A stretch of DNA of 64,000 nt from contig PS015222.1 in NCBI GenBank assembly GCA_048213135.1, positions 1 through 64,000 of the forward strand, read 5' to 3'. This document shows positions 927-64,000 of this stretch, one piece after another. The notes beneath the pieces were generated by a model, which worked only from the letters and a program-made list of their open reading frames with translations, did not search any database and was not told the DNA's origin. A program made the translations under genes and the position numbers. The stretch comes from Reclinomonas americana ATCC 50394 (taxonomy: Eukaryota). How positions within the stretch are numbered: the first letter of the stretch is position 1; every line of letters begins with the position of its first letter.

Positions 927-1637
927 TTAGTGGTGCTCCTCCTTGCCGCACTGTATAACAAGTAAGCAACCCACTCATTGGAGGGCATGTAGCTCTCTCT
1001 CTCTCTCTTGCTGGGACGCAACGTCAGGCTGGAAGAGAGTGCAGTCCTTGTTGGCCCAGGGGAAGGGCTTGTGGGACACCGTGGCCTGCTTGTGGAACGT
1101 CTTGTAGGCGAACGGCTTCTGCTCGTGGTGGTGGCTGTGGTCACTGTGGAGCACACCAGGCAAAAAGAGACACGGGGAGGGAGAGCGTGAGAGAGTGATG
1201 CGCCATCTCGATGCCCCGTCTCCCTCTCCCTCTCTGTGCGTGCGTGCGTGTGTGTGTGCACAAGTGGAGCGTGTTACGCAACCCGCCAAAGAGCACCACC
1301 GCGCCCTGTGCAACAACACAGAATCAGTTTCATCACAAGTTGCATTTCTCTCTCTCTCTCTTGTATGTCGACGCAACAAACACGGGCACGGCGACCATGC
1401 CGGCGTAGCTGACCAGCCGCCAGGTGTTGGTCGAGTTGCCGTGGCCACCAGCACCTACCACACACAAAGTGTGAGAAAAGAGAGATACGCTCAAGATGCA
1501 AGATGCGGTCGACAGTTAACATGACACTCACACACACACACAGAGGAAGGAGTGTGCATTCACACAGGCACACAGACAGAGGAGACGCAACTCGATGACA
1601 TTGCGCGTCGCGCACCACGAACGAAAGCGCCTGACAT
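927..1637 (-). CDS. COX6A: Cytochrome c oxidase subunit 6A (5 exons)
   Basis: Spliced product MSGAFVRGARRAMSS-SAGGHGNSTNTWRLVSYAGMVAVPVF-GAVVLFG-GDHSHHHEQKPFAYKTFHKQATVSHKPFPWANKDCTLFQPD-CGKEEHH*. It shows a mitochondrial presequence, a W-x-x-x-S helix and the KPFPW..C.LF motif. All four introns start GTTGCG. Confidence 0.8.
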
Positions 1638-1839
1638 TGTCTTTGTGAAGAAGTGTTTGTATGAATGGGGGTCACCGTGACCAGGCAGTGGAATGAAATC
1701 GCGCGACGGCAACCCAAGATCAAAAAAAATCCTTCTTTCGCACACTCTCGCTCGGTTGCTCTTTACCACGGTCTGCGCGCACGAGTGTGTGTGTGAGTGA
1801 GTGAGAGAGAGAAAGAGAGAAAGAGCACAGCAGAGAAAG

Positions 1840-4800
1840 ATGAGTGGAGCTCCCACAGAATCAAAAGCAGCTGACGCATCGTCACCACCACCTCCACGGC
1901 GTCCACTGAGAAGAAGACCCGGTGCTGGTAGTGGCCAACAACAGCAGCAGCAAGCGGCCGACGGCGACGACGAGTACGACAGCGATGATGACCGCACACA
2001 GCGGGAGATACTCGAGGAGTTGGCCGCACAACTCAGTCGCGGCAGCCGTCGTGGACTCGCCGCCAGTGACAGTGGCATTGGTGACGAGGATGACGAGGAT
2101 GAGGAGGTGTATGACCCGCATGCAGGCGACGACGCACTCACACGCAGGCAACGCGCGGCGGCCGCGGCCGCAGCACTGGCGGCGTTTGGTGGGGTTGGCT
2201 CGTTGGGCGCGGCCGGGAGTGAGCTGCTCTCGGTCGACGAGTCGTGGCTGCGTGGTCTCTCCATGTCGCTGCCGACGCAGTTGTGTGAGCAAGGTGTGTG
2301 TGTTTGCCCTTGCCCCCTTTCGCGCCATGTCGCCTCTCTCTCTCTCCACTGCTCTCACACGCCAGCGCGCAGTGCTGTTGCGTGGGCGACGTGCGTCGGC
2401 GGTGTATCACACGGCGACGCACAACTCGCCGACGACGCTGTCGGGTGTGGCGGCGAGGAATCGTGAGAGTGCGGGTGTGCTGCATCACTCTGATTTGCCG
2501 TACTTTGGCGACGATGATCAGCGCGTGGCTGGTGGTGCTGGTGGTGGTGCGGGCGATGGCAGTGCAGGTGGTGATGGGCGGTTGATGGGCGCGCTGGGCA
2601 GTGGTGGGAGTGTGGGCGCCGGTGGCTACGGCGGCGGAAGTGATACGTCATCGCAGACGGGAACGGCGCTGGCTGGCACGTCGCCGCCACCCGTGCCGGA
2701 GCCTCTAACGCGTGCCGAGCGGTGCGTCTGTGTGTATGTGTGTGGACAAGCGGAGGGGAGAGGAGCCCTGGATTCATTCCTTCTGGTACTCATCGCTGTT
2801 GTTGTTCCGCAGCGATCGATCGCTGGGCATTCTGTTGAGCATTCCTGCGGAGGACTTTACGCCACCGCGACGCAGTGGTGATCGCCGTCGGGGACTGCTC
2901 AGCGGCGGTGTTGGCGGTGGCGGCGGTGGCGGTGGCGGCGATGATTCTCCCGAGCCTGCGGATGCGACGCACTCGTCCTTGTCGCCGTCACGTCGCATTG
3001 GGCGGGCATCGTCGGCGTCACCGTCGGCCTCGCCGGTGCGATCGTCACCCAAGCACGGTGCAGGAACACCGGCGTCTCCCAAAAAGGGCACACCGGAGGG
3101 AGTCGGTGGTGCTGCGGCGACGGTTCGTCTTCTCAGTCCGGCGGCATTGACACGCGTCCCCGCCCCCGCGATGTGCATGTGACTCATTTTTCTCGCACTG
3201 CGCCACAGATTGGTGTATTCGAGGCTAGTGCACTGGTCGGGCACACATTTCCTGTCACGCCAGCACCCAAGACACGCCGTGCCATGCCCACGCCGGCGGG
3301 GAGGTCGACACTCTTTGATCGGAGGTATGAGCAAATCATCTGTGTATTTTCCTCGTCGTCCTTCTCATCCAGGAGTGGCAGAGTACGCAACGCGGGCACA
3401 GCCGGCACCGAGACAGTAGACGCGCTGGAGCGACGATTGGCCACACTGAAGCAGCAGACGGACGAGGACATTCGCGTGTTCTTGCACGACATTGAGGGAT
3501 TCGAGACCAAGGCGTGCACGAGTGAGGGCCAGATTCGTGGCATCCGACTGTTGAAGGAGAAGTCGCAGTTGATTCTCGACACGCCTGTGCAAGAGTTGCG
3601 CAATGGCGAGCGGTTACGCAAGCTCATTGAGGAGATTGAGAATGTGGAGGAGGACAAGTCGTACGTCAATGGCGACGAAGTGAGCAACATTCTGCGCAAA
3701 TATGCGCGCAAGCTCATGTTCCTCCTGTCGCGCATCACTCGCCTGACGGCCTACCTGGTGCGTTGTTGGCTATCTTTCGCCCAGTGCGTGTGTCGCTGTG
3801 ACTCACTCGCTTGCGTCTCCCGTAGACGGAGAACGTGCCGGCCAGCGGCACGCCAGTCGGCACAAAAAACGGAACTACGTCGTCTCGCAGCAAGATGCGC
3901 AAGCAGAATACGTTTGTTGGGTTGCCTGGTGGGCCTCCACACCCGCCGAACAGTCCAACATCGCGAGCGCGGCGTGGGAGTGGCATTCGACGCAACCCGA
4001 CCATGGGCGAGCTGGCGGATCCTCTCACGGAAATCAGCGGCCATTTGGATGTGCAGGTGGCCGACCGCGTCGCCGAGGAATCGGGGTTCAAGCCGCAGCA
4101 TCTATCGCCTCCGAAAGCCTCGGGTGCCACCGATCGAATGGCGGTGTCGGCGGAAGGGGTGCGCCGTCGCCAGCGATGTCGTCATTTTTGCACCTCCCCC
4201 TCGGCTCATACTCTCCCCCACGCAGACACCGGCAACCACACCGAGTCAAACGCCTCCCAAGTCGCCACACTTGCTCTCCAGGAAATCCCCGCCACCTGCC
4301 GCCGACCACGGAGCGGCCTCGCTTGAACCACTGACTCCCTCGACGATTTTCATTCCGCCGCCACCGGCCTCGGTCCACAGATTATCCGTCACCACCGCAC
4401 CGGCGACCACTACCACCACCACGACGACAACGACAACAACGCCGGCAGCAGCAGCAGCAGATTCGGCGACACCATCAACACCTCCCGCGCTGGCGGTGTC
4501 AACGCCATTCACTCCCGTGCCAAGAGGTTCAGGTCCCCTGCAGATCTCATTAACTCGAGCGAGTGGTGGCGATGGAGGTAGCGAAGGAGGCAGGGGTCCG
4601 GGCGATGGCGGTAGCTCGGCACTCGACGCTTCGGCCGTCACATTGGATTTCACGCCGCCGAGTCAGACTGACCGTCCACAGACGCCACCGCCATTATCGC
4701 CGATTGACGTGGCGTTGCATGAGCGAATGCCGACGGCCACTGGAAGCGATGAAACGGTATCGCCGTCGGATGCCACATCGCCCAACACACCCAGCGACGT

Positions 4801-7800
4801 GTTGTCGCCGGCTTCGCCTCCCGAGAGTGTATCGTCGGTGGGCGGCTCGGCGAAAAAGGTGACGCACACGCACGCACACACACACAGAGGTTGGAAACCC
4901 TGTTGATCATTATTTTTTGCTGACACATTGTGTTGGTCATTTTCGTGATGATGCCAGGGTACTTGGTTGACTCGCGTATTCGCCAAATTGGGCCTGCGGT
5001 CCAAGAACACAGATGACGCCAGCGGCAGCGGCTCGGCCACTCCCTCTGCCGCCGCACCGCAGGCTGGCCGCGCAGCCGCCGACACGCCAGCCAGTTCCAG
5101 GGGGATGCACACGCCGGCCTCTGCCTCGAGTGCCGTCGTGCCGCTTGGTTCGCCCGGTCAGGTGCTCTCGTCGCCGGAGAGTGACGGACTCGGACGCAGT
5201 ACCGTGTTCACACCGGATAGCATGGCCTCAGTGCCGCCGCTCTCGCCGACAGGCGAGCTGAGTGGCACCGGGCAGTATCGCGGACGTCTTCTCGCGGGGA
5301 ATGATGATGATGATGACGACGACAGCAGCAGTGCTGCGCACCAGGTACATTGCCGTGTCGTGCGTGACTCCAGGTGGTTCCACACAAGCTGACTCGAAGA
5401 AAACAAATGTGAACAGGCTGCGCTGGAACCGCTGCACCCGATCGCTCTGCAAGTTGGTGGCGTGCCACCTCAGCCAATGTCTACTGGATCTATCGATTCA
5501 GCAGGTGTGTATCATTCTCTCTCGCCCATTGCGGTGACTTTGCCACCCGCATCATTCATTGACACCTGCACGCAGATGGGTCAAGTCCCACAGTCCCGCC
5601 ACTTTATCACAATCGCCCGCGCACAGCTGTCGGCAGCTACACGTATTCACCACCGACGAGCGCGCGATCAGCACCTCCACTTATTCGACGCCACTCGGAC
5701 TTGCCGGCTCCGACGCCGCAGAGTCCGGTGGCACTCGATCTCTTGTGCCGCATCTGCGAGGAGGTGGTGCCAGTGGACATGCTGGAGGAGCATTCGCGCC
5801 ATTGCACCAAGTTCAGCAACAGTGGTGTCAAGGCATCGAGCTGCGACGAGAGATTACGCAAGGTGTGGCGAAGAGAAAGTGTGTGGGCGTGTTGAGTGTG
5901 CGGGCGACGTGCTCATCTCCGCCGCAGCTGGCACGAGCGTTGCGCAAGAAGATGCCGCAGGGAGCCGAGAACTGGGTACGTACTCTTCTCCCGTGCGCAT
6001 CACCACCCCTTATTTCACTCATCTGTGTCTGTTGCAGGACGAGGCCACGGTGAATGCTTGTGAGGATGCGGACATTCCGGTGATGCGAAACTTGTACCTG
6101 CTGGCCATGCAGTTGAGTGTGCTGTCGCCCTACTTCCATTGATCTTTTCACATCGCTCACCACATTTCGTTTGTCGGCACACAGCGTCTTGAAGCTGAAC
6201 TGTGGCCCGTACGAGTCGCCCGTGGCTTGCCAGACGCTCTTCTCACACATTAGCCATCTCATTCAAGTGCGTACTCTCCTCGATTCTCGCCATTACGAGC
6301 TGTCTGTCACTCACCCTCCCCCACACAGGAGAGTGCACCACACATCAACGAAAACCTCATGGTGTTTGCGCGGCGTATCGAGAGTGTGGTGGCTGACAAG
6401 CTGGCGGCACTCAAGGATGGTGCCGCGTCGGCTGCCGGTCGTTACATGTCGACTGTGGCGGGATCGAGGACGCACTCGCGTCGCAACTCGTCGTCGTCAC
6501 TGGACCAGTTCCAACCGGATTCAGTTGCGACGCGCAGAGCTTTTTGCTTTATTTGCCTATTGCGTTGCTCACACATGGTAATGCTTTGTGCTAGTTACAG
6601 CTTGGCCTGATGCCTCCCAGTCCGAATCCCGAGCTCGGAAGGAAGAGCATGGACTCGATGTCGCCGCGTGTGCCTCGAGGACGCGAAGAGATTGACTCAC
6701 CGGTGAGTGCCAATTGATTGATGTTTGTCGTTTTGTCTGTCGCCCTGATCACTTCTCACTGATAATGACATGATTGGTGGCGTCAGCTGTCGAGCCGAAG
6801 TCAAGAGCACCCGCACATCTCGCTGGACTCGAATCCATTCGGGATTGGTGTTACGGGTGCCGGTTCTGGGTCGGATTACAACTCGCCACGCCTGCCGGGC
6901 TCGTCGGACTCGCCGCAGTTGTTTGGCTCCGAGGCGCAGTCGCCCAACATGCACGGCGATCACACGTACCACATGTCTGGCCAGTCGCACTCGCCCTTTG
7001 CGCACGACTTTGTTGGCGACGACACGTTCTGTTGCGTAGAGGAAGGCATGTCACAGAACAGAAGTTCCTCGCTTACCGATCGAGTGTCGCAGCGTCCAAC
7101 ATGAGTACCCCGCGACGATTCGAGGAGAGCGAGGATGCGAGCTTCCTGTCGGAGCCGAATACCCCGCGCCTGTTGTCAAGGGTGAGTTGGGACGGCGGTG
7201 CTATCCTTTCTCTCCCCACTGGTGGGTGGCTGGCTCACCTCGTGGCGCTCACACAGCCCAAGTCGCGTGGCATGTCGATTCGCGACTTCCGTGTCATCAA
7301 GTGCATCTCTCGAGGTGCATTTGGGCGCGTGTTCCTGGCGCGCAAGCTCTCGACTGGCGACCTGTACGCCATCAAGGTGCTGCGCAAGGACGAAATGGTG
7401 CGGCGGAAGCAGGTGAAGCGCGTGCTGGCCGAGCGCGATGTGCTGGCACAGACCAGCAACCCGTTCCTCGTGCGCTTCTACTACTCGTTCCAGGGCAAGG
7501 TGAAGCACAAAAAAAGATAGCTTTTGTGTGTGTGTGTGTGTGTGTGTGGCGTGTTGTGATGATGCTGACTCGCAACCCGCTTGCATCGCAGAAACATTTG
7601 TATCTGGTGATGGAGTTCCTCAACGGCGGTGACTTGTTCGCGCTGCTACAGCGTTTCGGCGAGTTCCCCGAAAACATGGCACGGCAGTACATTGCCGAAG
7701 TCGTGTTGGCTCTCGAGTATCTGCATTCGCACGACATTTTGCACCGGTGTGTTTTTGTGTGTGAAACGAAAGAAAAAATATGTCAGTGGCCTCGCACTCA

Positions 7801-10800
7801 TTGATTGTTTGTCCCACCGCAGTGACATCAAGCCGGATAACATGCTGATCACAACCGATGGGCACGTGAAGCTGTCTGACTTTGGCCTCGCTCGTGCCGG
7901 CCTTGTTGACGGTGACGTACTGCATTATCACTGGTACTCACCGTCTTATAACTGAACCCATCTTTGTGTGCATCTGTGTATCAACCACACAGACCCGTTC
8001 ATGGACGAGACGGTGGACATGACTGGCAAGTCGCCGATGCGCCCACCGCCGTCGGCCATGTCGCCAACTGGTGAAAAAGAGGGTCGACGCGAGCGTCTCG
8101 GCAGCGCGTGCGGCAGTCCGGATTATATGAGTCCCGAGGTGCTGCTCGGCCTCGAACAGAGTTGCGTGCTTTTGCTGGGCTCCATCGTGTATGTTGTGCA
8201 CGGCGGCGGCGAACTCATGCACGACGCAGGTGCCGCGATCGATTGGTGGTCGGTTGGCGTCTGTCTGTTCGAGTTCCTCACCGGCTGCCCACCCTTCAAC
8301 GACGCCACGCCCGAGGCAATCTTTGACAACATTCTCTCACTGAGTTGAGCCACCGACGTGCACTCTATTGCACTCTACGTGCGCGATTGTGCTCACTTCA
8401 CCCTGCCGTAGACATTCCGTGGGACGATCTGCCGGAGGATGTGTCGGAGGATGCACGCGACTTGATCAAGCAATTCTTGCGTCGTGATCCCAATCGTCGA
8501 CTTGGAGCGCATGGTGAGTGTGTGATAAGGACTCTCTAGTTGCCTTCTCCCGCCGCATCCTCACGGCATTGTCATCGCGTGTCGCAGGTGCTGCTGAAAT
8601 CAAGGCACACCCGTTCTTTGCGACCATTGACTGGGAGAACATTCATCGTCAGCGAGCCGAGTATGTGCCCGAGACTGGTGACGACGAGGACACGTCGCTG
8701 TTCGAAGGTGTGAACCCGCAGTCGCGCAATGATGCTGTGCGTGTCGCCCTCACTCATCACCACTCGTGCAGAGAGACACGCTGTGTATCCCATCAAATCC
8801 GACGTCATTTCCGACGACGACGAGTCCTCGAGCTCGGACTCCAGCACCAAGGAGGAGCGCAGTGCAGCCGCCGACGCAGAAACAGTGCGTGAGCTTTCTT
8901 TTGCGTATTCACCCCTTCTCCCGCAAGCTCACTGGCTCGCCTTTATCGAGCAGGTCGATTCGGACGACAGTGATGCCGACGAATTCCTGGGCTTCAACAT
9001 CACGAACGCCACCAACTTGGCAAAGCTCACCTCCGAACAGGCTCCGGCATACAGCAGTGTGGCCGCAACCATGGTCGACAGCACCGGCTCGTCGGGCATG
9101 ACGCCGGGTGGGTCGCCGCACATGGGCGGCACGCTGAGTGACCGCGGCGTCACGCCTGAATCGTTGTCACTGGACCAGGTGCGGCGTGCCCCCACCCCTA
9201 TTCTCCATTGCTTCTTCTCACTATTTTTTGTGACTGGCTGTAGGTCACAATGACACCGAGCACGCATCTGGATGTGTGCTACACGAGTGACAGCGAGGCA
9301 GCCGACAGCAGTGAGCACAGTTCGCGTGAAGTTGTNNNNNNNNNNNNNNNNNNNNNNNNNNNNNNNNNNNNNNNNNNNNNNNNNNNNNNNNNNNNNNNNN
9401 NNNNNNNNNNNNNNNNNNNNNNNNNNNNNNNNNNNNNNNNNNNNNNNNNNNNNNNNNNNNNNNNNNNNNNNNNNNNNNNNNNNNNNNNNNNNNNNNNNNN
9501 NNNNNNNNNNNNNNNNNNNNNNNNNNNNNNNNNNNNNNNNNNNNNNNNNNNNNNNNNNNNNNNNNNNNNNNNNNNNNNNNNNNNNNNNNNNNNNNNNNNN
9601 NNNNNNNNNNNNNNNNNNNNNNNNNNNNNNNNNNNNNNNNNNNNNNNNNNNNNNNNNNNNNNNNNNNNNNNNNNNNNNNNNNNNNNNNNNNNNNNNNNNN
9701 NNNNNNNNNNNNNNNNNNNNNNNNNNNNNNNNNNNNNNNNNNNNNNNNNNNNNNNNNNNNNNNNNNNNNNNNNNNNNNNNNNNNNNNNNNNNNNNNNNNN
9801 NNNNNNNNNNNNNNNNNNNNNNNNNNNNNNNNNNNNNNNNNNNNNNNNNNNNNNNNNNNNNNNNNNNNNNNNNNNNNNNNNNNNNNNNNNNNNNNNNNNN
9901 NNNNNNNNNNNNNNNNNNNNNNNNNNNNNNNNNNNNNNNNNNNNNNNNNNNNNNNNNNNNNNNNNNNNNNNNNNNNNNNNNNNNNNNNNNNNNNNNNNNN
10001 NNNNCAATGTGGTGATGCCGCAGATGCAGAGCTCACGGCACGCATCGACTGTTGGTCCATTTGTCGGTGGCTCGTTTGTGTCCACGGGTCACAATCAGCA
10101 GCACTTCCACCAGCAGAATCTGCCGCCCGGTGCGCGCATGCCTCTGCATGCACGGCGCAAGCAGCAACAGCAACAGCAAGTGCACTCGGCTCACTCGCAT
10201 CACGCGTCGACCGGCAGCAGCACCGCCCCATTCAGTGCCGTCGTGTCGCGTGGGCAGTCGTCGCCCAACATTGCCGCCACCGTGGATCCGGCACTGTTGG
10301 TGAACCGCGGCAACATTTGGCTGCGCCACAACACCAATCCCGACGGCCTGTACCCGATGGAGGACGGCGATGTGAGTTCACCGCTCTCCTCCTCCTCCTC
10401 GTCGTCGCGGCCTCGCTCGTCGTCGCTGCCGCAGGGCACGGTGTCGCCACCGGCGGCGCTCATTGGTGCACACATTGAGCCGCTGAGTCGGGAGCTGTGT
10501 GGCGATGCGTATTCGCCAGAGCCGGCGTTCTCCGACCCCGGTGACGACGACCACTCGAGCGATGCGCTCGATTCCAGTGCCCTCACCGGCAGCTTCGCGG
10601 CGAGCACGCCAGCCGGTGCCGATTTGTCAATAGGCAGCGCCTCTGCTGGTGTATCCGGCGGTGGCGCCGGCTTGTCGGGTTCGCTGAGTGTGGGAGGCAC
10701 CACTGGTGCAGCCGGTGGTGGTGGTGGTGGTGGTAGTGGACTGGACTCGAGCTTGTCGTGCAACAGCACGGCGTCGAGGTGCGTAGTTGGTTTACTTGTC

Positions 10801-12480: not shown

Positions 12481-12517
<37 letters not shown>

Positions 12518-14693: not shown

Positions 14694-15906
14694 TTATTTG
14701 CCATACTTTGCCTTGAATGCCCTCACAAAGGCTTGCAGCTGAGAGGAAAGTGAGTTGTCACAGCTGCTGCTGATNNNNNNNNNNNNNNNNNNNNNNNNNN
14801 NNNNNNNNNNNNNNNNNNNNNNNNNNNNNNNNNNNNNNNNNNNNNNNNNNNNNNNNNNNNNNNNNNNNNNNNNNNNNNNNNNNNNNNNNNNNNNNNNNNN
14901 NNNNNNNNNNNNNNNNNNNNNNNNNNNNNNNNNNNNNNNNNNNNNNNNNNNNNNNNNNNNNNNNNNNNNNNNNNNNNNNNNNNNNNNNNNNNNNNNNNNN
15001 NNNNNNNNNNNNNNNNNNNNNNNNNNNNNNNNNNNNNNNNNNNNNNNNNNNNNNNNNNNNNNNNNNNNNNNNNNNNNNNNNNNNNNNNNNNNNNNNNNNN
15101 NNNNNNNNNNNNNNNNNNNNNNNNNNNNNNNNNNNNNNNNNNNNNNNNNNNNNNNNNNNNNNNNNNNNNNNNNNNNNNNNNNNNNNNNNNNNNNNNNNNN
15201 NNNNNNNNNNNNNNNNNNNNNNNNNNNNNNNNNNNNNNNNNNNNNNNNNNNNNNNNNNNNNNNNNNNNNGCATGTGCACAGTGCATTGACCCCCTCCTTT
15301 GTAGGTTTCTCGAGACCTCACAACGGCGGCTTCAAGAACTGCAGACGCAGTTTGGGAAGCCAGACTCGCAAGTGGATCCTGTCGGTCAGCCCGCCTGCAA
15401 CCTCCTCCTCCCTGTCTGTGCTTGGGCACTCACTGTCGTCGTGCGGTGCGCAGAGGCGCACGAGAGCTCACACGACGTCAAGGGTGCATCATCGACCATT
15501 GGCTGCAACAAGATCTGCCACTTTGCCACGATTATTAACGAGGTGATTGACGCGGTTTCATGCGTATTTGTTTTCATCGATTCTCACACGACGCTGCAAC
15601 AGGCTGTGCGTGCCGACAAGCCCGACTTTGCCGTGTGTCGGCAGGCATTGCCACAGTTGGCCGGCGCCATTGACCAGGTGTGTGTGTACGCTCGCNNNNN
15701 NNNNNNNNNNNNNNNACGTGCACGCGCAGCGAACACAGCAGCCATCGCAACTCTTCCAATAGCTGCGCTCCAAATAAAGTAAATCGTGCAATGAGTGGAA
15801 CATATAAAATCCAACTCGTTGGTCAATCGCACACACTAACCTCCAACAGAAACTCGTTGTCGTTGTCGGTCTGCTCCGACGCAAAGTCCAGATCAATAGC
15901 CCCCAT
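14694..15906 (-). CDS. Histidine phosphotransfer (HPt) protein, RdeA/Ypd1/AHP-like. Exons 1, 2 and 6 are on -, exons 3-5 (15305-15677) on + within a gap-bounded contig
   Basis: The joined product is MGAIDLDFASEQTDNDNEFLLE-LLEEFLETSQRRLQELQTQFGKPDSQVDPVEAHESSHDVKGASSTIGCNKICHFATIINE-AVRADKPDFAVCRQALPQLAGAIDQ-LQAFVRAFKAKYGK*. It contains the H-x-x-KG-x-S-x-x-IG phosphoacceptor motif, and intron phases match across the strand switches. Confidence 0.85.
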
Positions 15907-17392: not shown

Positions 17393-20371
17393 CTAATCCA
17401 GCGCACGGCGACATGCAGCGACTTGAGAGACGGCCACCGCCCTCGCTGGCAGTGGTGAGTGTGTGCAAGAGAGAGTGTGTGCGTTCTCGATCAGTTTGCC
17501 AACGTCAGGTGCAGGATTGTGAAGGCGATGTGGAGCGTGCGCAGCGTGCTCGTGCGCTAGTGGATATGGTGCTGCAGCAGAGACGCAAGCNNNNNNNNNN
17601 NNNNNNNNNNNNNNNNNNNNNNNNNNNNNNNNNNNNNNNNNNNNNNNNNNNNNNNNNNNNNNNNNNNNNNNNNNNNNNNNNNNNNNNNNNNNNNNNNNNN
17701 NNNNNNNNNNNNNNNNNNNNNNNNNNNNNNNNNNNNNNNNNNNNNNNNNNNNNNNNNNNNNNNNNNNNNNNNNNNNNNNNNNNNNNNNNNNNNNNNNNNN
17801 NNNNNNNNNNNNNNNNNNNNNNNNNNNNNNNNNNNNNNNNNNNNNNNNNNNNNNNNNNNNNNNNNNNNNNNNNNNNNNNNNNNNNNNNNNNNNNNNNNNN
17901 NNNNNNNNNNNNNNNNNNNNNNNNNNNNNNNNNNNNNNNNNNNNNNNCCCATCGCTGCCACTCCAATCTTCTGCTCCCGACACGCACATCGAGTGAGTCG
18001 TTGCACCGTGAGATGCAAAGCAGCTCGCAACACAACTGTAGAAGCGCGCGAAGTGGCCGCTCTGCCGTGCTGGCACAGTAGCGTCGGCCCCGGCGTGCAG
18101 GAGAATGATTGCGGGCGTTGGCAGACTCGTCTTTGGAGCTGCAACACAGAACATGTGTGTGGTCGGTGAGAGGAAGGCGCGTGGCAGCTACGGTGGCACG
18201 TGTGCGCATACCGTAGAAGGCGCACTGCGAGGCCCACCACGACGGTGAGAAGTCGTTGAAACGGTCTTCGCCGCCCATGGCACGAGCCATTGGCGAGAAT
18301 TTCTCCACACCTGCGTTGCCAGTCGTCAGCGACACATGAGGCGACGACTAAAGAGTGTGTGCTCGTTCACGCAACAGCGATACGACTCGTGCTTGAAATG
18401 GTCCTCAATGTCATACACGCCATTGATGCCGATCATGGTGCGCAGCGAGCGAATCCAGCTAGCTGTGGTGCGCAGCACGGAACAAAGGAGAGAACCGTGA
18501 GCAGCAGTGGTAACAGGCAGGAAACGCGTGCAACGCATCACGCAACGTGACGAAGTGAGACCACACTCGTAGAGCACATTGTCCAGGCGGTGCTTTTCGG
18601 CAGCAGTCGGGTTGATCTTGGCGTCTTGGCACAGTCGCAGCATGGTTGTCAGCGCGACAAGATGCGCGCCAGCGCTGTGCCCGACCAAGTGTATGCAACC
18701 GGGATCTGACGGCACCATCATCGGAAGGAGATGTGCGGCACACACATACACACGAGCGTACACACAAGATGCAACAACAAACCTCCGCCGTAGCGCGGCG
18801 CAAAGTCGCGTGTCCACTGCACACAAGCATCAATGTCGGCCACCATCTGTTGCACATTACCCTGCACGCCGCACAATGAGGGGACTGGAATTCGCGGACA
18901 ACAACAGACGCTTGTGATTCGCAGGCACCTTTGGGAAGAGTGTGTACGACGGGATGACGCACACAAAGCCCATGGTCTGCAAGAAACGACCGACGAATGC
19001 ATACTCCGTACGAGAGCCCCAGCCCCAAGCGCCGCCGTGCACAAAGATCACCACTGGTCGCATGCCCGGTTCGCCCGGTGGACCCTGCGTGTTTTGCAGA
19101 TACACATCCAACAGCGCGGCTGGACTCTGCTCCCACACGCGATACCGAATGTCGCGCTCCACAGCCGCCGAGCAGTTAACCAGCGCGTAGCGATAGGCAC
19201 ACAACCAAATCGGGGCGACGATAAAGTGCTGCGTCGAACGGTGAGTCTGGGTTGCATACCACCCGTCTTCCACGGCAGGGAGACTGACGCACCCACAAAA
19301 CGTGCCACGCCATCTGCAGCGCAGTCCAGAATTTGCGGTATGCCGCGCGCACAACACGGAACACCACGTTCTCACTGAAGCGCACAGGAGACGAGACGCG
19401 CACCACATTGGGAATCGACGTCTCAATCGGCATGGCCGTAGCAGCCGGCTCGTACGGTTGTCGCGTGGGCGACACGCGACGCACAACTTTCTGTGGAGCA
19501 GAGAATGTGAGTGGAGTGGACGAGAGACGCCCGCACACACGAGACGGCGCACCACTGGGTCTGGATCGGGGGTGATGGGTGGCGGACCATCATCATCATC
19601 ATCATTGTCTTCGCCATCCTCGCGGAAGCTCTGATGACCATGATACCACTGATCCATCTCGCGCAGACTCTGCTCCACTTGCAGGTACTTGTTGTGCAGC
19701 TCTTGCAAGAACTGCACGTAGACACACACGAAGGTATGAGCCTCCTCTCTTCCCCTGCTCCTCTTCACGAGAACAACTGACCATCCGCACAAGAGGCCTG
19801 CGTGAAATCGCACTTGGTCAGTTTGCAGAGGCAGGTTGAGAGTCTCTCTCTCTCTTGCAAACTCACCGAATCTGCTCCTGAGTGATTGAGCCTGTGCGCT
19901 GCGTGTCGAGCTGATGAAACACTGCGCGTGGAGTGCGTCAGTTGTCTCTTCACACAGCGATATTTTGTTGCTCTCAACGCAACTGCGACGAATGTCGGTG
20001 TTGCTGGGAATCTCACGTGGCGCCACCGCCAGTCTCTCGTAAAAGTCATTCACCAACTACCATGAAACACACGAGTGCGCATGTGTGTGTGAGAGAAACA
20101 AGAAGAGAGCGACATGGCTTCTTCACGCGCGCGCGTGTGTGTGTGTGCGTGCATACGTTACCTGGTGGAACTCGCGATGATCGACCACACCGTCGCCGTT
20201 CATGTCAGAGGCATTGAAGAATTCCTGTGTGTGCAGAGATCCGGTGATGACGTGTGCTGCGTTGCATGCACGATGATACGTGACCGCACGCACCTCCACA
20301 TAGCTGTCGAAGGCTTCAGGGCGCGAGAGAATGTCACGCAGCTGTGCACTCAGCGGCGCAGCAGTTGTCAT
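17393..20371 (-). CDS. EF-hand pair fused to an isoprenylcysteine methylesterase (ICME)-like alpha/beta hydrolase
   Basis: EF loops DMNGDGVVDHRE and DTQRTGSITQEQ. Hydrolase motifs LDVY, VIFVHGGAWGWG, LVGHSAGAHL, GINGVYDIEDHF, LLHAGADATVP. The 3' part crosses a gap. Confidence 0.82.
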
Positions 20372-40388: not shown

Positions 40389-40446
40389 ATGAATGCATGT
40401 TTCCTTGGACAACAGTTAACTAGTTGGCAGGCATTTTCAGTATTAA

Positions 40447-44861: not shown

Positions 44862-44867
44862 GCAAGA

Positions 44868-47138: not shown

Positions 47139-48323
47139 ATGTCGCGCCAGAGCACCTCGCTTCTCTTCCTCGCGCTCGCCTGCATGTTTGCACTGGTGTT
47201 CACCAGCACTTTGCTGGTGGAGCAGGCGGCTGCGGGTGAGCTCGAGCATGCGCTGGCCTTGGGCGACCCCGACGCGCCTGTGTGGCCTGCGTTTTTCCAG
47301 ATTGGTGAGCGAGTGTGTCTCCGTGTGTGAGTGTGTGCGTGCGTGTGTCTCACTTGGCTCCTCCACCCACCGCAGACTTTAGCGAGACCACCAAGATCAT
47401 TGGTGGCAGTCACACGACGACAGGAACGTGGTGGTATGATGCGGTGAGTGCATTGTGTGCCTCCCCCGGAGTCTCGCTGTCTGTCTTCTCAAGTTCTCTT
47501 TTGGTGGGCATTAGGTGCACAACTACACGCGCATTGACCGCGCCAATGGCCGTCACGACCGCTGTTGCGTTTCCTCTCCTCTTTCTTTGTTGGTGCTTCA
47601 CGTGAGCTGATGCAGCAACAACACAGATTGCGGCAGCATTCACCCGTTGCGCCTGCTCTGCCTTTTTCTCTCTCTCACACTCACTCCTCCGTGCGTCTCT
47701 CACTTGCGCGGCGACACAGGCTCACCAACACGAATTGCACGCACCTGGTGGTCGCCGGCATGCGATATCTCGTGTTCCCCGAGCTCAAGTCGTGCTGCGC
47801 GTGCTGCAACGATGCCAAGGGCTGCGGTACCATTCGCCGCGACTGGCTCCATGGTGCACAGTACCTCGGAACGCAGCAGATTGGCGGCTACATGACCAAC
47901 AAGTGGAACCAGAAGGTCTGCGCAAGACATTGTGAGGGAACAGGGGGCCTTGCAGGCGCTGATTGTCGACCGTGCAGGGTCTGCAAGACAACTTTTACTA
48001 TGCCACCGTGGACTCGAACGTGCCGGTGGAGTTGCGTGTGGTCAAACAGGTCGAGGGTATACTCTGCAATTGCAGCTGAACGTCGCACCATTGTATGCAG
48101 GCTCGACATGGCGCCGAATGACCTGTTTGAGTTCAACCCGCAGACGTTGCGCATACACGGCGGTCTCCTGTTCCTCCGCCTTCTCTCCCTGCTGCTAGCT
48201 GACACTGGCCTCTGCAAACACAGGTACAAGACCGACCCGATCAATGGCAGCATCTTTGCGCTTCCGTCGTACTGCTCCGCGTCGGCCTCATGCCCGACGC
48301 TCTCCGTGTGCACCGTGGCCTGA
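47139..48323 (+). CDS. Secreted Cys-rich protein, ependymin-related/LolA-fold-like
   Basis: Signal peptide, then PVWP..F, GTWWYD, RIDRANGRHDRYCGS (built with a 19-nt microexon), CCACC...GCG....DWL..AQYLG, C-terminal IFALPSYC. Confidence 0.6.
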
Positions 48324-51945: not shown

Positions 51946-54900
51946 ATGGAGACCGTGCAGCTGCTTGAGCAGGTGCTGAGTCGACCTGATCTGCATCCGG
52001 AGGTGTTCATCGCGGCCAATGTGCGTGCGAGATCAACACACACAAAGTGACTCATCTTCCGTCTTCCGTCGGTCTCCCTCTTCCTTGTCTCTCTCTCGGC
52101 ATCATCACTGTGTGTGTGTGTCTCTCTCTCTCTCCTCCTCGCTCTCTCCCTCCTCCTGTTTGCAAACTGGTGCATTTCGGGGTTTCCCGCGCGCCAACTC
52201 TCTCCATCATGACAACTCACGGATGCTGCTGTGCAAGCACGTGCACTGTTCCCTTTCCCTGCCCTCGCTCTCCCTGTCTGTCCCTCTTCTCCACTCCCCA
52301 GAGTCAAGTGCCAATTGTCCCATTCTGCAATTCATGTATTTCTGGTGCAGGCACATCCCGCCGGCTACGTCTCTCTGCAGTTCCTGCTGGTCAGTGCACC
52401 GGAGCTGAGCATGGGCGACGAAGAGCAGCTGGCGACGGCGATTGAGGAGCACGGTTGGCGGCAGCGACTGCTGCAGCTGAGTCGATGTCGACGCATGGTG
52501 CGAGTGCGCGACCCGGTGGAGCGCGTGCGTCACGTGATTGAGGAGGCCATGCTGCGTGCGTTGGTGAGTGCCCGTGGCGGGAGTAGTGCTGCTGGTGATG
52601 GTGGCGGCGATGAAGTGATGGCGGCAATGCTGGCCAAGTGCGACGGTGAGGGCTTTGTGGCGCTGGCGGATGTGGCGGCGGTGCCGGCGGTGCAGGAGGC
52701 GCTGCGAGCCACGGCGCACTTGGCGACGAAGAGTGACGACGAGTTCCCCATGGTGGGTGACGACGGGCGCACGGGTGCCGATGTCACGGCGGCGGCTGGA
52801 GGCAGTGCCGTGCAGGCGGTCGCGCATCCGGATCTGTCGCACGCGCTGGCCTCGTCGCCGTACGTGCACATGGATGTGGTCGGTGGTCGCATGCGTCCAC
52901 TGCCGCGTCTGGAGGCCGTACAGCGGCAACTCGAGTTTTGGTTCTCCGACGACAACCTCGCCGGCGACGCCCATTTGCGTCAGCTGATCGAGACGTGCAA
53001 GTTTCCGGCGCAGTTGGCCGACTCGCACGCGGGTGTTGTGCGCGCTGGCGACCTGCTGGAGTTCCGCCGCCTCACCAAGATGCAGGCCACTCGCGATGAT
53101 CTCGCTCTCGCCACACGGCGCTCCCCTGTGCTCTTGTCGGCGGGCGAGGGAGGCTGGATCGGTCGTCGTCGAGGTTTGCTCCCCGTGACTGCGAGTGATG
53201 GAGTGCGTCATGAGCCCCAACAAAAGAAACGCGTGTGAACGTAGCGTACAGGCTGGCCGACTTGTCGCAATACATGCAGCGACAAACCGACTTGGCCGTG
53301 CACCGACAGGTCCGACGCCAGATCGAGTTCTGGTTCAGCGACACCAATGTGCTGTACGACGCCACACTGCGCAGCATCATGCAGAGACATCCGCGCGGAT
53401 TCGTCAGCGTGGCTTCTCTGGCGAGGCTGCCCACCATCGAGACGTTGCGTGTGTACGACTCGGTGCAAATGAGGTACTGCTGTGGGAGCTAACGCGTATG
53501 CGCAGCATCTGTCGCGAGGCCGAGTGCGAGCAGTCGCCTGAGCAGGTGACGGTGTATGCGCTGCGAGGATCATCGGTGTTGGAGTTGAGCCATGACGAGC
53601 GCATGGTGCGAAGGAAGGCTCGTTTGCCCGAGTTGAGGCGCATGGTGGCGTGTGCTGCCGATTTTGATGAACTGCGAAGTTGCGTGCATTGTTTCTGTAC
53701 AATTCGTGGCAGAGTGGGCATGTGAGCTCACGCTGCCGCAGCTCTCATGCCAGCCACACCGCCACCACAGCCGCTAACTTTTACACTGATGACATACAAT
53801 GTTACGTGTGCATGCACACCATTTTCTCGCTGCATATCGCCGACGGTCTTCGTGGCATTGTGCAGGTGCTGGCTGACTACCTGGCTCGTCCCGATTGGTT
53901 CCCCGGCGTCAAGGCCGAGTACATGAGTGCGTCTTTGTGGCGTTGTCGTCATTTTTCCATTCTTTGCTCACCCCGCACGCGCATCACTGCAGCGTGGGCC
54001 TACCGGAGACGACTGATCAAGAGCGAGATTTTGTACCACTCGCCCGACATTTTGTGTCTGCAGGAAATGCAGAGCACGCGCAACTGGAGAGACGACCCGG
54101 TGAGTCCCCCCGCACGCACGTGCGTGTGTGTGTGCTTGTGCTGATGACTACGGCAGGAGACAACGGGAAATCACGCAGCATTCTTCCTCGAGTTCCTGGA
54201 ACAGGCCGGCTACTCGGGCCACCACATTCGCAAGACGAATCGACGTGGCAAGCAAAACTCGGATGTGACCATTGGCAATGCGGTTTGTGTTCCTCCCGCC
54301 TTGTGTGTGCGCTTTTGCTTGTCAGCCGTTGTGACTACCGGCCGGCAGATCTTCTTCAAAGTCGATGCGTTCGAGTTGGTGGCGCAAGAGGAGATCATTA
54401 TTGCTCTGCACATGAGCAAGTTGTTCTCCTCGATCGACGACTACAAGGTACTGGGGGAGAATAAGCTGGATCTTTATTGTCTTTTTCCTGCGCTCACACG
54501 CTTCTCTGTTTGTGTGTTTTGCAGTCCAACATGCACTCGTACGATCACGTTGCACTATTCACACTGCTGCGACACCGCGCCACCGAACACCACGTGCTGG
54601 TGTGTACGGCGCACTTGTCGCCCGACTGGAGAAGAAAGCACGTGCCGACTGTGCAGGCCTACGTGTGCCTGCGTGAGATGGAGCGCTGGCGTCGCGAATG
54701 GTGCCGTGGCGGCCGTCTGATCAACGCAGTCGAAGCACCCGAGGACTGCACCCCACTGCCGGTGATTTTCGCCGGCGACCTGAACATTATGCCGTGTGAT
54801 GGCGCGTACGAGTTGATTCAGGAGGGGCATGTTGCGTGTGTGTCAGTGGTGGCTTGCTGCGCACGGATCGTCCATTTATTTTGGTTCATTTTTGTGTGGT

Positions 54901-58144: not shown

Positions 58145-59596
<1,452 letters not shown>

Positions 59597-59603
59597 CGTC
59601 GTC

Positions 59604-62326
59604 ATGAGTTCGTCGCCTGAGCTTGCACAACTGGTCCACTCGTGGCTTGCGCTTGGTTGCGTGCACCAGACATGCACACGCACACATACGCACGCACACA
59701 CATGCTCATGTTCTTGTGCAGATCGCGACCCGGACACGCGTGAGCAGATTCGTCAGCTGGCGGTGCGTGCAGGCATTGCGCTTGGTGAAGATGCAGAGGC
59801 GGCGGTGAGCGAGGCCAGCACGCGTGAGTCGGCCACAGAGGAGCTGCGTGCGCGATTGGGCAAGCGCATTGCATTTGGAACTGCAGGTCTCTGTCTCTTT
59901 CTCTCTTGCTTGCGCGCTCTCTCTCTCTCTCTTCGGCGACTGATGCGTTGCGTTGGGTGCAGGCTTGCGTGGACGCATGGAAGCCGGCTTCAATCGCATG
60001 AATGGTCTCATTATCATGCAGGCGACGCAGGTGCGCATCTTTTTCTCTCTCTTCTCACTTGTGCGAGCTGTGCTGTTCATCATTGTTGCGTGGCAGGGTC
60101 TGTTTGTGCATCTGTGTGATGTGTTTGGCGAGGAGACTGTGCGCAACCGCGGCATTGTGATTGGTCACGATGCGCGGCACCATTCGCTCGAGTATGCTCG
60201 CTTGACAGCGTCGGTGTTTGTGCAACGTGGTGCGCGTGTGCATCTCTTCTCCAAGATTGTGGCGACGCCGATGGTGGTACGCTTGTGTCTCTTCTCTCTC
60301 TCTTTCTGCTCTTTCGCTTCGTGTTGCTGATGGCTCTGTGCAGGCGTATGGAGTGCGCAAGCTGCAGACGGTGGCCGGTGTCATGGTCACGGCGAGTCAC
60401 AACCCGAAAGCCGACAACGGCTACAAGGTGTACTGGGAGAATGGGTGCCAGGTGTGGACTCGACACACAGTCTCTCGCGCTGTGTGGCATGCACGCCTCA
60501 CTGTTGCATGCCTGCAGATCATTCCCCCTCACGACGCCGGCATCGCGAAGCGCATCGAGGAAAATCAGGAGCCATGGGCGGGCGTGTACGAGCAGGCGGA
60601 GCATGTGCGCGAGTCGGCGCTGTGTCACGATCCGTTTGACGAGGTGTGCGATGCCTACTTCAAGGCCGTGCATGACGAGTACTGCCACAAGCGGTGTGTG
60701 TCGGCTTTTTTTGATTGCATATTTCTCTCTGCCGTATCCGCTCACTGCGAGACACTGTGCACAGCTCGCAGAACCAGCAATCCGACATGAAGGTGGTGTA
60801 CACGGCCATGCACGGTGTTGGTGCGCCGTTTGTGGCTCGAGCGTTCGAGGCATTTGGCCTGCCACCGTACATTCCCACGGTCGAACAGATCAATCCCGAT
60901 CCCGAATTCCCCACTGTGCGCTTCCCTAATCCCGAGGAGAAGGGTGCCATGGTGCGTTGTGCAGTGTGTGTGTATGGTAGCAATGACGAGAAACGTTGAC
61001 ACTGAGGTGGGGTGCGACAGGATCTGGCAATCAAGACGGCCACGGAGGTGGGTGCCGATTATGTGGTGGCCAACGACCCCGACGCCGATCGACTGGCCGT
61101 GGCGGTGCAGGAGAAGTTGCGAGGACTTTCTGCTGCGCTGTTGACTACCTCATGTACTCACGATGCTTGGCGCGCGCGTGTGTGTGTGAGCAGTGGCACG
61201 TGGTACGTGTTGAATGGAAACGAAATCGCCAATCTGTTTGCCGAGTATGCATGGCGCATGTGGCGCGAGCGCAACGCCGACAAGGAGCCAGGTTTGCACA
61301 TTGCGCTTTCTTCGTCTCTTATCTTAAGCTGACGGAGATTCCCGTTGTCTGCGAGCAGGCTCGGCGGTGATGGTGGCGAGCACGGTGTCGTCCAAGTTTT
61401 TGAAAGCCATGGCCGACGCGGAGGGATTCGAGTTTGCCGACACGCTGACTGGATTCAAGTGGATGGGCAACAAGGCCGACGAGTACGTGCGTCGTGGCTA
61501 TCACTTCCTGTTTGCCTACGAGGTGGAACTCGGTGAGAGCTCGTGTCACTGTAGCGTCATTGTTGGGCGGCAGCATGCTGCTGACACCTCGTTGTGTTAG
61601 GGTTCCTGGTCGGCGACCTGAACCTGGACAAGGACGGCCTGCGCACCGCCGCCATCATGACGGAGCTGGTGCTGGATCTGAAGCGACAGGGCATCTCGGT
61701 CAGACAACACTTGGACAACATGTACCGCAAGTTGCGTGATGAATCAACGCGGCGCTCTCTGTCGACGCATTGCACTGACCCTTCTGCTGCAGATACGGCT
61801 ACTTCCACATGATCAACAAGTACTTTTTCTGCTACCACACCGAGGACTCGGATGCCGTGTTCAAGCGCCTGCGCACCGGCGGTCCGGATGGCGGATACTT
61901 GCGTGAATTCGGACCCTTCCGGTGAGCCAGTCGTGAAATTTGTTGTCGGCGCTGCCTCTCGTCTGACCACGCACGCAGTGCGAAGAACATTCGTGACGTT
62001 ACGCTCGGGTTCGACGATGCATTCGAGGATCACAAGTCGCGCCTGCCGCTGGTCACCGACAGCCAGGCACGTTCCTCGTTTCTTCACGTTCCCATAAGCA
62101 CTCTGTCTCACCTGCATTCGTTCATGCACTGCAGATGATCACATACACGGTGGAGGGCGGCGGCACGGTGACGCTGCGCAACTCGGGCACCGAGCCCAAG
62201 CTGAAGTACTATGTGGAGTGCTCGGGCCCCGACGCCGCCACGGCTCGTGTGCGATCCGAGGCCGTCGAACAGGCCATGATTGAGCACTTCCTGGAGCCGG
62301 AGAAGAACAACCTGGTGAAGCCCTGA
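59604..62326 (+). CDS. PGM2: Phosphoglucomutase-2 / phosphopentomutase (PGM2 family)
   Basis: FGTAGLRG, TASHNP (phosphoserine), [44 protein letters not shown]. Confidence 0.95.
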
Positions 62327-62464
62327 GCCAGCCACGTTTGCTCATGTGGCGTACGCCTCGGGCACACCATGAATTCATTAAACAAAATCGACTACCGAGT
62401 CCCCTGTCCTCCCGCCACACACAATCGCAATCCGCGAGACAACTCGTTGTCGCTGCGTGTCACA

Positions 62465-64000
62465 ATGGACGTGGATGACGATGGTTTGCGTGCCCAGTCC
62501 TCTGCACAATCCCTTCGCGTGCTCACTCTCTTTCCCGCTCAGTCTCCGCAGTGCGCAGTGAGCGCGATGCCGAAAGTCTGAACAGCAGTCGCCTCTCCTC
62601 TGGCGCCGTCTCACCTCGCGACGACGACGGCGAGGAGTTTGATGAGGACGACGGTGACATGGACGACGAAGATGACGAGGAGAACATCAATGGCGATAGT
62701 CGCGAGGTCACTCTCACACACGCACTCACGCACTCAAGCATCCACTGTCTCTGATGCACACGCGTGTGTGGCAGGTCTCGCGCAGTGCCACGCCCATGGA
62801 TGCCGGTGAGCACGCCGGTGAGCATGCTGCATCGGCATCATCAGCATCATCGTCGCAACGCATGCGCGGCAGGCCATCGCGCGCGGCCGCTGCTGCTGCT
62901 GCCGAGGAGTCGGCTGCGGCGGCTGCAGCTGCCGCAGGGCCGCTGTTCGCCTATCGCTCGTTTGATCGGCTGGTCCCCATTCGACTCGATGTTGACTGCG
63001 GCGAGTTGGGGCGTTTGCAGGATGTGTTTCTGTGGGATCTGGGAGGTTTGCATGTACAGCGCGAGTGTGTATCTACGTGCGTACGTGCTGAACGATGATG
63101 CGCGCGCGACTGTAGGTGACGCAGAGGAGGACGAAGAGGAGACGCGTCATCTGTACGAGGAGGGCCTCAACAACTTTGTGCTGCGACTGGCCACCGAGTA
63201 TCGATTGACCTCCGAGTACATGCATCAGGTGGCGGAGACGTGTCGTGGTCAGATCGAGTACGCCGCTCGTGTCTTGTCGCACCCGGCGCCTGTCGGTCGC
63301 TCCTTTCGTGTCAACATTTCGGTGCGCATGACTGTCGTCGCTGTGCCGTCTCTCTCATGAGCTGCTCACTTGTTTTGCTCAGCTGAACCTGCGTATCGGC
63401 CTGACGGTGTTGCAAGACAACTTTGAGTGGGACATTAACAATCCGCATGCCAGCCCTGAAGAGTTTGCCACGTGCCTGTGCGCCGAGATGGCTCTCGGAA
63501 CCGAGTGGTTGGTGCCGATTGCACACTCCATCCGCGAGCAGGTGCTGCAGGCGAGGAGAGTTGCGTCGATCCGCAATGTCATGTCGCTGCCGGCTTCCTC
63601 CTCATCGCTATCCTTCCTTTTGCGGTTCTCTTCGTAGGAGTACATTCAGAATGGCTATCCTGCGGATGCGAACGACGAGATCAGCCGCGGCATTGTGCTG
63701 GTTCACGAGCCCAGCGACGAGTACTCGCTTGTGCGTGATGAACTCGAACAGAGTCAGTTCGAGCCGGTGGTGGCCAAGGTCAATCGCGACGATGTTAGTC
63801 GCATCGAGCCGATCGAGGAACGGCAAGCGCGGTACGTGGCATCATCGCGCGCACGCCTGCCGATGGCAGTGATTGATTGTGGAGTGCAGATATCGGCGGC
63901 GAAACATGGACGTGTTTGTCGACAGTGGCGCCATGCGCGTGCAGAGGAAATGTTGCGGTCACTCGCTCACGCGCGTGAGTGTGTGTATGTGTTCTCACCA
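62465..64000 (+). CDS. SNF5: SNF5/SMARCB1/Sfh1-like chromatin-remodelling subunit (3' end at or beyond the window edge)
   Basis: LVPIRLDVD..LQDVFLWD (repeat 1) and LNLRIG..LQDNFEWDI....PEEFA..LCAEMAL....IAHSIREQ (repeat 2). Confidence 0.9.

Follow-up and report, generated by a model that had tools for sequence, protein, structure and literature searches.

The window analysed here, the first 64,000 nucleotides of contig PS015222.1 of Reclinomonas americana ATCC 50394 (GenBank assembly GCA_048213135.1, forward strand), is a gene-dense nuclear eukaryotic stretch (64 kb; G+C 59% with N excluded; 14 N gaps; about 22 gene models) in which many introns begin with GTT[G/A]NG, overwhelmingly GTTGCG(T), beside the ordinary GTGCG, GTGAG and GTACG donors. 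All junctions reported are models, built from the DNA and from protein comparison of this one window, and they point to the GTT[G/A]NG sites being genuine U2-type 5' splice sites. The analysis of the sequence confirmed the GTTGCG donor class as a clearly non-random feature, and we estimate that it accounts for roughly 10-19% of the introns in the window, about one in six. As to how such sites would be read, we give an even chance to the proposal that U1 reads AG[U]UGCGU one position out of its usual register (+1), the cut falling at the sole GU.

Donors were located with a protein-to-genome spliced aligner, of which only GT..AG was demanded and which carried no donor matrix. Its inputs were 45 homologues of PGM2, 40 members of the AIRS family, 40 of SNF5 and a single homologue of a secreted Cys-rich protein. 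The PGM2 and SNF5 comparisons were repeated with 30 alignments each and GC donors permitted at equal cost. Independently of homology, a self-trained gene finder (a hidden Markov model, HMM) joined an acceptor matrix and a prior on intron length to a 3-periodic Markov model of coding sequence, with the donor specified as GT only. This donor-blind version called 137 introns and placed 9 of the 12 PGM introns exactly; an earlier pass with a flat length prior had found 3 of the 12. The donor table that the HMM acquired by expectation maximization (EM) amplified spurious words (e.g. GTCACT, GTGCTG) and missed the donors at 63560, 36260, 39319 and 8161. A further signal-only EM procedure used the distance to predicted acceptors and the word following GT, with no coding information; it is noisy, its top donor being the coding-based donor in 54 of 137 introns.

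GTTGCG was the donor of 13 of the 137 donor-blind introns, level with GTGCGT as the commonest hexamer. Among all GT sites of the window it makes up 93 of 8314 (1.1%), from which 1.5 of 137 donors would be expected (binomial p = 6 × 10−9), and among non-donor intronic GT sites 12 of 978 (1.2%), from which 1.7 would be expected. Multiplying the donor frequencies of the single positions predicts 0.65 GTTGCG donors, or 0.16 when the class is left out of the matrix. Six hexamers of the same composition, present in 18-104 window copies each, gave 0, 0, 4, 0, 0 and 0 predicted donors versus 15 for GTTGCG, and the signal-only EM assigned 15.0 of 137 donors to it versus 1.5 expected. The share of the class depends on the donor model: it was 16 of 168 with a flat model, 22 of 164 with a model informed by ordinary donors and near-neutral to the class, and 32 of 172 with the class included (both strands, overlaps unresolved). 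The proposal of an earlier note on this DNA that GTTGCG is a major donor class was thus borne out, at 9.5% of donors without a donor model and 13-19% with donor models, and the frequency exceeds what either intron composition or independent positions would yield. All 19 positions that the note named do carry GTTGCG on the strand given, out of 43 window copies on the plus and 50 on the minus strand. The class supplies 13 of the 36 validated donors, a share that is inflated because the genes picked were those that the earlier note had flagged. The hexamer is insufficient alone: the copies at 38106 and 38113 (exonic) and at 12911 (in a single-exon gene) are unspliced in the models.

The anatomy of the class is that of an ordinary donor with one base added. 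Written as GT+T+[RNG(T)], it parallels GTGCG, GTGAG and GTACG, with GTTGAG and GTTACG as minor forms and GCG over-represented. The extra base is specifically T: among window copies of GTNGCG, donor-blind donors were 13 of 93 with T, 0 of 12 with A, 0 of 86 with C and 1 of 137 with G. The conserved +5 G is missing, as had been claimed, +5 being C or A and +6 being G in all 24 class sites obtained from homology and the gene finder together. Class introns occur in all three phases (6, 5 and 4), so GTT is not explained as a codon effect. The exon flank differs as well. Of these 24 sites, 15 have A and 1 has G at −1, compared with 6 that have A and 35 that have G among 50 ordinary GT[AG]NG donors of the donor-blind run (Fisher test for −1 G, p = 4 × 10−8); when only homology-fixed sites are counted, the class has A 9, C 2, T 1 and G 1 (n = 13) and the other donors A 2 and G 21 (n = 23; p = 9 × 10−7). 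The preference for a non-G base before the cleavage site, mainly A, therefore stands, and it marks donors among copies of the same word, since A precedes 15 of 21 donor GTTGCG but 13 of 63 non-donor copies (p = 4 × 10−5).

These flanks resemble the ordinary ones moved by one position. In the homology-fixed ordinary donors (n = 23) the base at −2 is A in 12, C in 8, T in 3 and G in none, and −1 of the class is alike. Downstream, the tail from +4 to +8 copies the GTGCG tail from +3 to +7: T at +7 in 16 and G at +8 in 12 of 24 class sites, versus T at +6 in 13 and G at +7 in 8 of 18 GTGCG donors. The one-base slide described in the earlier note is thereby supported. For exon bases −3 to −1 the log-likelihood was −86.0 under the shifted register, −89.2 under background and −99.9 under the same register, the latter being the expectation for a bulge. 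One formula, AG[G or U]UGCGU(G), covers both the class and the ordinary element, the cut falling just ahead of the first GU.

Thirteen GTT[G/A]NG donors were fixed by alignment to homologues, paralogues or profiles, independently of any donor model (Table 1). Three lie in the PGM2-like gene, which has about 14 introns in about 600 codons, 47-78 nt long and mostly 62-78 nt; their YAG acceptor is preceded by a CTRAY branch motif at a distance of 10-25 nt. The same gene also uses ordinary GTGCG, GTACG and GTGAG donors, plus the odd GTCTCT, GTGTGG and GTTTGC. Its last intron (62067-62134, plus strand, 68 nt) starts cag/GCACGT, where the slash marks the exon-intron boundary, in 28 of 30 alignments with GC permitted; the GT-only option, 62088, would give an atypical 47-nt intron, and the intron is probably GC-AG. 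The PGM2 homologues that score best across the whole gene are metagenome or EukProt entries, with no close relative among them. SNF5 and the AIRS-domain gene contribute three more class donors, and their alignments were ambiguous at several other junctions.

The secreted Cys-rich protein gene (47184-48323, plus strand) has one homologue in a search of 5.8 billion proteins, the 225-aa P0391 of Naegleria lovaniensis, which no Pfam model matches. Identity is 58% across one query exon. P0391 aligns gap-free over seven introns, four of them with GTTGCG, and the result was unchanged at three intron penalties and with GC donors permitted. The alignment also confirms a 19-nt micro-exon (47627-47645, plus strand) with GTTGCG on both sides, which the gene finder missed.

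Two tandem 2OG-Fe(II) oxygenase copies (A, 37600-38620, and B, 39250-40390, both plus strand) share an intron that reads TCG/GTGCG in A and ACA/GTTGCG in B, in agreement with what had been noticed earlier. The B introns 39738-39804 and 40037-40109 are without a counterpart in A, where the coding sequence is collinear, which implies intron gain or loss after the duplication. In A, two overlapping exonic GTTGCGT words (38106 and 38113, within 38106-38118, plus strand) are coding, conserved with B and apparently unspliced. The protein kinase match covers 78 residues for 55 Pfam profile positions, and the intron at 8161, with a branch motif and a CAG acceptor, would remove the surplus.

Table 1. 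Donors of the GTT[G/A]NG class, the ordinary donor of the paralogous oxygenase intron, and candidate sites. Fractions are homologue alignments choosing the site (GT..AG only unless GC is mentioned); HMM, gene finder; EM HMM, gene finder with the EM donor table.
Site	Position	Strand	Gene	Base at −1	Evidence
GTTGCG donor	59656..59661	+	PGM2-like	G	31/45; 20/30 with GC permitted; donor-blind HMM; absent from earlier note
GTTGCG donor	61116..61121	+	PGM2-like	A	44/45; 23/30 versus 7 for a GC donor at +3; donor-blind HMM
GTTGCG donor	61731..61736	+	PGM2-like	A	43/45; 29/30 with GC permitted; donor-blind HMM
GTTGCG donor	36255..36260	-	AIRS-domain	A	20/40
GTTGCG donor	35967..35972	-	AIRS-domain	A	weak: 10/40 versus 15 for GTGCGG at 36037; both HMM runs
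GTTGCG donor	63560..63565	+	SNF5	A	30/40, GT-only
GTTGCG donor	47564..47569	+	secreted Cys-rich protein, 5' of 19-nt micro-exon	T	gap-free homologue alignment; manual frame reading
GTTGCG donor	47646..47651	+	secreted Cys-rich protein, 3' of 19-nt micro-exon	C	homologue alignment; manual frame reading
GTTGCG donor	48031..48036	+	secreted Cys-rich protein	A	homologue alignment; donor-blind HMM; absent from earlier note
GTTGCG donor	48146..48151	+	secreted Cys-rich protein	C	homologue alignment; absent from earlier note
GTTGCG donor	39319..39324	+	2OG-Fe(II) oxygenase paralogue B	A	phase-0 position and exon length equal to paralogue A
ordinary GTGCGA donor	37760..37765	+	2OG-Fe(II) oxygenase paralogue A, homologous intron	G	
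GTTGCG donor	8161..8166	+	kinase domain	A	69-nt in-frame stop-free intron, a 23-residue insertion versus Pfam Pkinase
GTTGAG donor	8344..8349	+	kinase	A	overlaps in-frame TGA; sole GT nearby; HMM-called
GTTGCG donor	6524..6529	+		A	donor-blind and EM HMM
GTTGCG donor	7031..7036	+		T	donor-blind and EM HMM; absent from earlier note
GTTGAG donor	6112..6117	+		A	EM HMM alone
GTTGCG donor	20842..20847	-		A	donor-blind and EM HMM; absent from earlier note
GTTGCG donor	18541..18546	-		C	donor-blind HMM alone; absent from earlier note
GTTGCG donor	21780..21785	-		A	EM HMM alone
GTTGCG donor	31709..31714	-	CAP-Gly	T	donor-blind and EM HMM; absent from earlier note
GTTGCG donor	34432..34437	+		A	donor-blind and EM HMM
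GTTGCG donor	53444..53449	+	La-domain	C	EM HMM alone
GTTGCG donor	53679..53684	+	La-domain	A	donor-blind and EM HMM
GTTGCG donor	54831..54836	+	La-domain	T	donor-blind and EM HMM
candidate GTTGCG donor	1586..1591	-	COX6A-like, intron 1		frame-consistent; in-frame G/GTGCGC 24 nt upstream; no HMM call
candidate GTTGCG donor	1372..1377	-	COX6A-like, intron 2		frame-consistent only
candidate GTTGCG donor	1277..1282	-	COX6A-like, intron 3, after 23-nt exon	G	splicing required for frame; frame-compatible GT 21 nt downstream
candidate GTTGCG donor	1017..1022	-	COX6A-like, intron 4		40-aa exon upstream matches COX6A1 weakly; read-through also open
candidate GTTGCG donor	28527..28532	+		A	local test: 71-nt intron, good acceptor
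candidate GTTACG variant	53801..53806	+			local test: 65-nt intron
candidate GTTGCG donor	15746..15751	-			intron enters 20-N gap, 15696-15715

The pairing that we favour starts from the ordinary AG/GUGCGU(G). The class element would be this sequence with U replacing the first intronic G, giving AGUUGCGU(G), in which the sole GU lies one base upstream. With U1 positions counted on the full 11-nt numbering of its 5' end, in the shifted register U10 would take the A at −1, C9 the G at +1, A7 the U at +3, U6 the G at +4 as a wobble, C4 the G at +6 and A3 the U at +7, and the U at +2 would face C8. The premise is a canonical U1 end, ACUUACCU, which is assumed; under the shifted reading a single type of U1 ending ACUUACCU or ACGUACCU would be expected. 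On that end, A/GUUGCGUG forms two Watson-Crick pairs and one wobble in the normal register and five plus two in the shifted one, which falls one pair (at C8) short of ordinary AG/GUGCGUG in the normal register. Cleavage at A/GU would be fixed when U1 is exchanged for U5/U6, so U6 would have to accept a pairing partner lying one nucleotide further from the cleavage site. In the canonical case, ACUUAC of the U1 5' end pairs with GUAAGU (10.1101/2022.06.08.495308), and experiments in human cells have established both shifted and bulged U1 registers (Tan et al. 2016, PMC4856993).

Several observations weigh against this reading. The shifted register fits the exon bases only 3 nats better than background, with a noisier donor-blind reference, its advantage over the same register being 14 nats. 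The frequency of A at −1 of the class, 62-69%, exceeds that of A at −2 of ordinary donors (28% donor-blind, 52% by homology), so a simple slide explains part of the pattern only. GTTGAG should pair better with a standard U1, yet GCG dominates the class more than it does ordinary donors. The oxygenase paralogues share their exon boundary and differ by insertion or deletion of a T within the intron, which looks like an insertion rather than a slide. The excess of A, the dominance of GCG and this intronic difference leave some weight to a dedicated U1 variant and less to a bulge. At SNF5 63560, 18 of 30 alignments choose a GC at 63563, 3 nt downstream, once GC is permitted, and this site is ambiguous. 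The gene finder is imperfect, recovering 24 (flat), 30 (ordinary-donor-informed) or 32 (class included) of the 36 validated donors; every junction is a model from DNA and protein comparison, and the U1 and U6 pairing is worked out on an assumed canonical U1 end.

The dominance of the GCG tail beyond what a standard U1 predicts, together with a class consensus that is tighter than that of ordinary donors (A at −1, T at +7, G at +8), would suit a dedicated or co-evolved U1, or a second variant, complementary to (A)GUUGCGU, for example with A for C8 or with an extra nucleotide. Precedents exist in Entamoeba, where GUUUGU donors meet a U1 with ACAAAC, and in Mastigamoeba, with GUGCGC and ACGUAC (10.1101/2022.06.08.495308). 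We nevertheless consider this explanation rather unlikely, as the class departs from the ordinary element at one position, which a standard U1 could tolerate, and as standard U1 ends are reported for the +4C lineages Thecamonas and Mamiellales in the same source; in addition, an Rfam scan of the window shows no snRNA gene.

In a bulged arrangement −1, +1 and +2 would pair normally, one U of +2/+3 would loop out and the helix would continue from +4 to +7. The displacement of the tail by exactly one base is what such a bulge predicts, the restriction to T follows if either U can bulge, the intronic T difference of the oxygenase pair with its conserved exon boundary agrees with it, and work in human cells has validated the register (Tan et al. 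2016, Table 3, PMC4856993). However, a bulge predicts that G is kept at −1, where it was seen in 1 of 24 class sites compared with 35 of 50 ordinary ones (1 of 13 versus 21 of 23 by homology), and the exon likelihood in the same register lies 14 nats below the shifted and 11 below the background value. On this evidence the bulge is clearly unlikely.

It could also be that no register logic operates, the spliceosome needing little beyond GU and GTTGCG being a common T/G/C-rich word in a degenerate matrix. Degenerate donors do exist here (GTCTCT, GTGTGG, GTTTGG, GTTCGC and GTACCA are backed by homologues or paralogues), +3 T occurs also with a normal-register +5 G, GTTGCG is present inside introns near their 3' ends, and GTT is preceded by G somewhat infrequently across the window (227 of 1366). 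Against these stand the 13 observed donors where 1.7 or 0.65 of 137 were expected, the virtual disuse of other +3 bases before GCG (G in 1 of 137, A and C in none) and the enrichment of A at −1 in donor over non-donor copies (15/21 versus 13/63), so that we hold this account to be improbable. Least probable is an annotation artefact in which the true donors lie elsewhere (GC-AG introns read GTT/GCG, in-frame GTs close by, or a T added in error during assembly). In its favour, every junction is a model, GC-AG introns exist here (PGM 62067, 28 of 30), SNF5 homologues choose GC at 63563 in 18 of 30 and several COX6A sites have frame-compatible alternatives. Against it, with GC permitted GT wins at 3 of 3 PGM sites (20, 23 and 29 of 30) and at all four sites of the secreted-protein gene, whose gap-free alignment an additional residue would disrupt; the oxygenase exon lengths are equal; an invariant exonic GTT in all three phases would have no rationale; and a homopolymer or random sequencing error adding T, which we rejected, could not strike the same intron position in over 10% of introns while co-varying with −1.

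Three further interpretations were discarded. The sites are not U12-type, whose extended donor consensus is of the RTATCCTT type: every one is GTTGCG, GTTGAG or GTTACG, and no snRNA match was found in the window. Introner-like mobile introns do not account for the class either, the similarity stopping after GTTGCGT(G) on inspection of the intron sequences. A putative 'two-T' series, GTTTGCG, dissolved because those donors carry a normal-register +5 G. Position +3 is unusually permissive here even outside the shifted class. T at +3 with a normal-register +5 G is fairly common (39738, 40037, 37928, 61292 and the 15857 region on the minus strand; words GTTTGG, GTTCGC, GTTCGT, GTTTGC and GTTAGT), and the boundaries of GTTTGG at 39738 and GTTCGC at 40037 are exact because the other oxygenase paralogue is without those introns.

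The class has relatives among known donors. In the human shifted register (Roca & Krainer 2009, as described in PMC4856993) all U1 pairs move by one position and cleavage at GU is kept. Poor canonical pairing is common to both, and the flanks of the class (−1 like −2, +7 like +6) fit the same geometry; in contrast to the tiny minority of human sites, well under 0.1% of donors, the predicted sites here amount to about 10-19% of introns on a GC-rich GUGCGU core. The human bulge +2/+3 and +3 registers resemble the class in having an extra nucleotide, typically U, after GU with downstream pairing displaced by one, and differ in predicting retention of −1 G, which is found in 1 of 24 sites here. 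Among 201,541 human donors, 54 and 36 are curated sites of these two kinds, jointly about 0.04%, and the total for noncanonical registers of every sort is 1.5-2.1% (Tan et al. 2016, PMC4856993). At the STAT3 tandem donor noncanonical U1 and U6 registers have likewise been proposed (NAR 2024, PMC11162779), for a single human site pair 3 nt apart rather than a genome-wide class.

Among protists, Entamoeba and Mastigamoeba have +3 U or +4 C donors, and a GUGCG type is the main class here too. There a single consensus has taken the place of the canonical donor, whereas here two classes coexist, the GTTGCG donors taking, for example, 4 of 7 introns of one gene. Thecamonas trahens and the Mamiellales share with this window a GC-rich +4C donor core, GYGCGY, read by a standard U1 (10.1101/2022.06.08.495308), which indicates that GC-rich donor cores are readable by canonical U1. 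They are described as intron-poor, unlike this intron-dense window, and the part of that source used here mentions no one-base-shifted subclass for them. In open-access full text, searched without aiming at this organism's own lineage, we found no account of a coexisting one-base-shifted donor class in any lineage. The kind of site is known from rare human examples, and the novelty here is mainly its abundance.

The remaining sites are of graded standing. For the 19 positions named in the earlier note, the support amounts to 9 alignment-fixed sites, 4 called by the gene finder, 5 plausible but unforced and 1 whose intron runs into an N gap. The statement that the positions are forced by reading frame was overstated for the COX6A-like gene. 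In that model the exons total 291 nt in frame, and the top three PDB matches of a 40-aa exon are COX6A1 chains, weak at E 0.5-1.2; its four donors are plausibly real but not forced. Intron 3 follows a 23-nt micro-exon (1283-1305, minus strand), present in the model only, which is flanked by GTTGCG and was missed by the gene finder. Both of the variants reported, GTTGAG and GTTACG, exist on the plus strand, with starts at 8344 and 53801 rather than the 8345 and 53811 given.

A Pfam search with 302 stop-to-stop open reading frames (ORFs) of at least 100 aa named genes for a protein kinase, RCC1, homocysteine S-methyltransferase, CAP-Gly, an AIRS domain, the two oxygenases, PIG-L, a RING protein, a La domain, guanylate kinase, PGM/PMM and SNF5. 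In this otherwise intron-dense region, 12759-13754 (plus strand), between N gaps, is an intron-free coding stretch for the homocysteine S-methyltransferase (Pfam E 3 × 10−36), and a second long intron-free ORF, 42365-43294 (plus strand), is without a Pfam match and presumably resembles cyanophycinase or an S51-type peptidase. The two stretches are possible bacterial acquisitions. The Rfam scan of the window gave no family at gathering score and no match to U11, U12 or another snRNA; at E ≤ 0.5 it gave only three matches to two microRNA families and a single one to a snoRNA, each scoring far under its gathering threshold. Among these, a mir-3149 precursor match at 28853-28958 on both strands (40.6 bits versus a gathering score of 100), lies beside the N gap 28777-28844 and is most likely a simple palindromic repeat. 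Introns and untranslated regions are rich in (CA)n, (GA)n and (CT)n runs, and TTGCG words recur between the branch point and the acceptor in several introns (e.g. 59887-59962 and 60031-60096, plus strand).

U1 recognition and the choice of cleavage sites out of register have been studied almost solely on rare human sites with minigenes. If the shifted reading is true, this genome would offer hundreds to thousands of natural test cases, with A/GUUGCGU(G) beside AG/GUGCGU in the same genes, and a clear prediction for the 5' ends of U1 and U6. In the oxygenase pair, the two homologous introns fall into different donor classes. Gene finders with a single donor matrix will mis-annotate such genes, and micro-exons of 19 and 23 nt are easily lost. 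A broader proposal, which we regard as doubtful, is that the lineage runs a two-register 5' splice-site code in which about one intron in six is marked out of register by U1 or by a dedicated U1 variant, with the cut set independently by the GU and the catalytic snRNAs. Were it true, U1 marking and cleavage-site choice would be uncoupled genome-wide, implying an adapted U1, U1C or U6.

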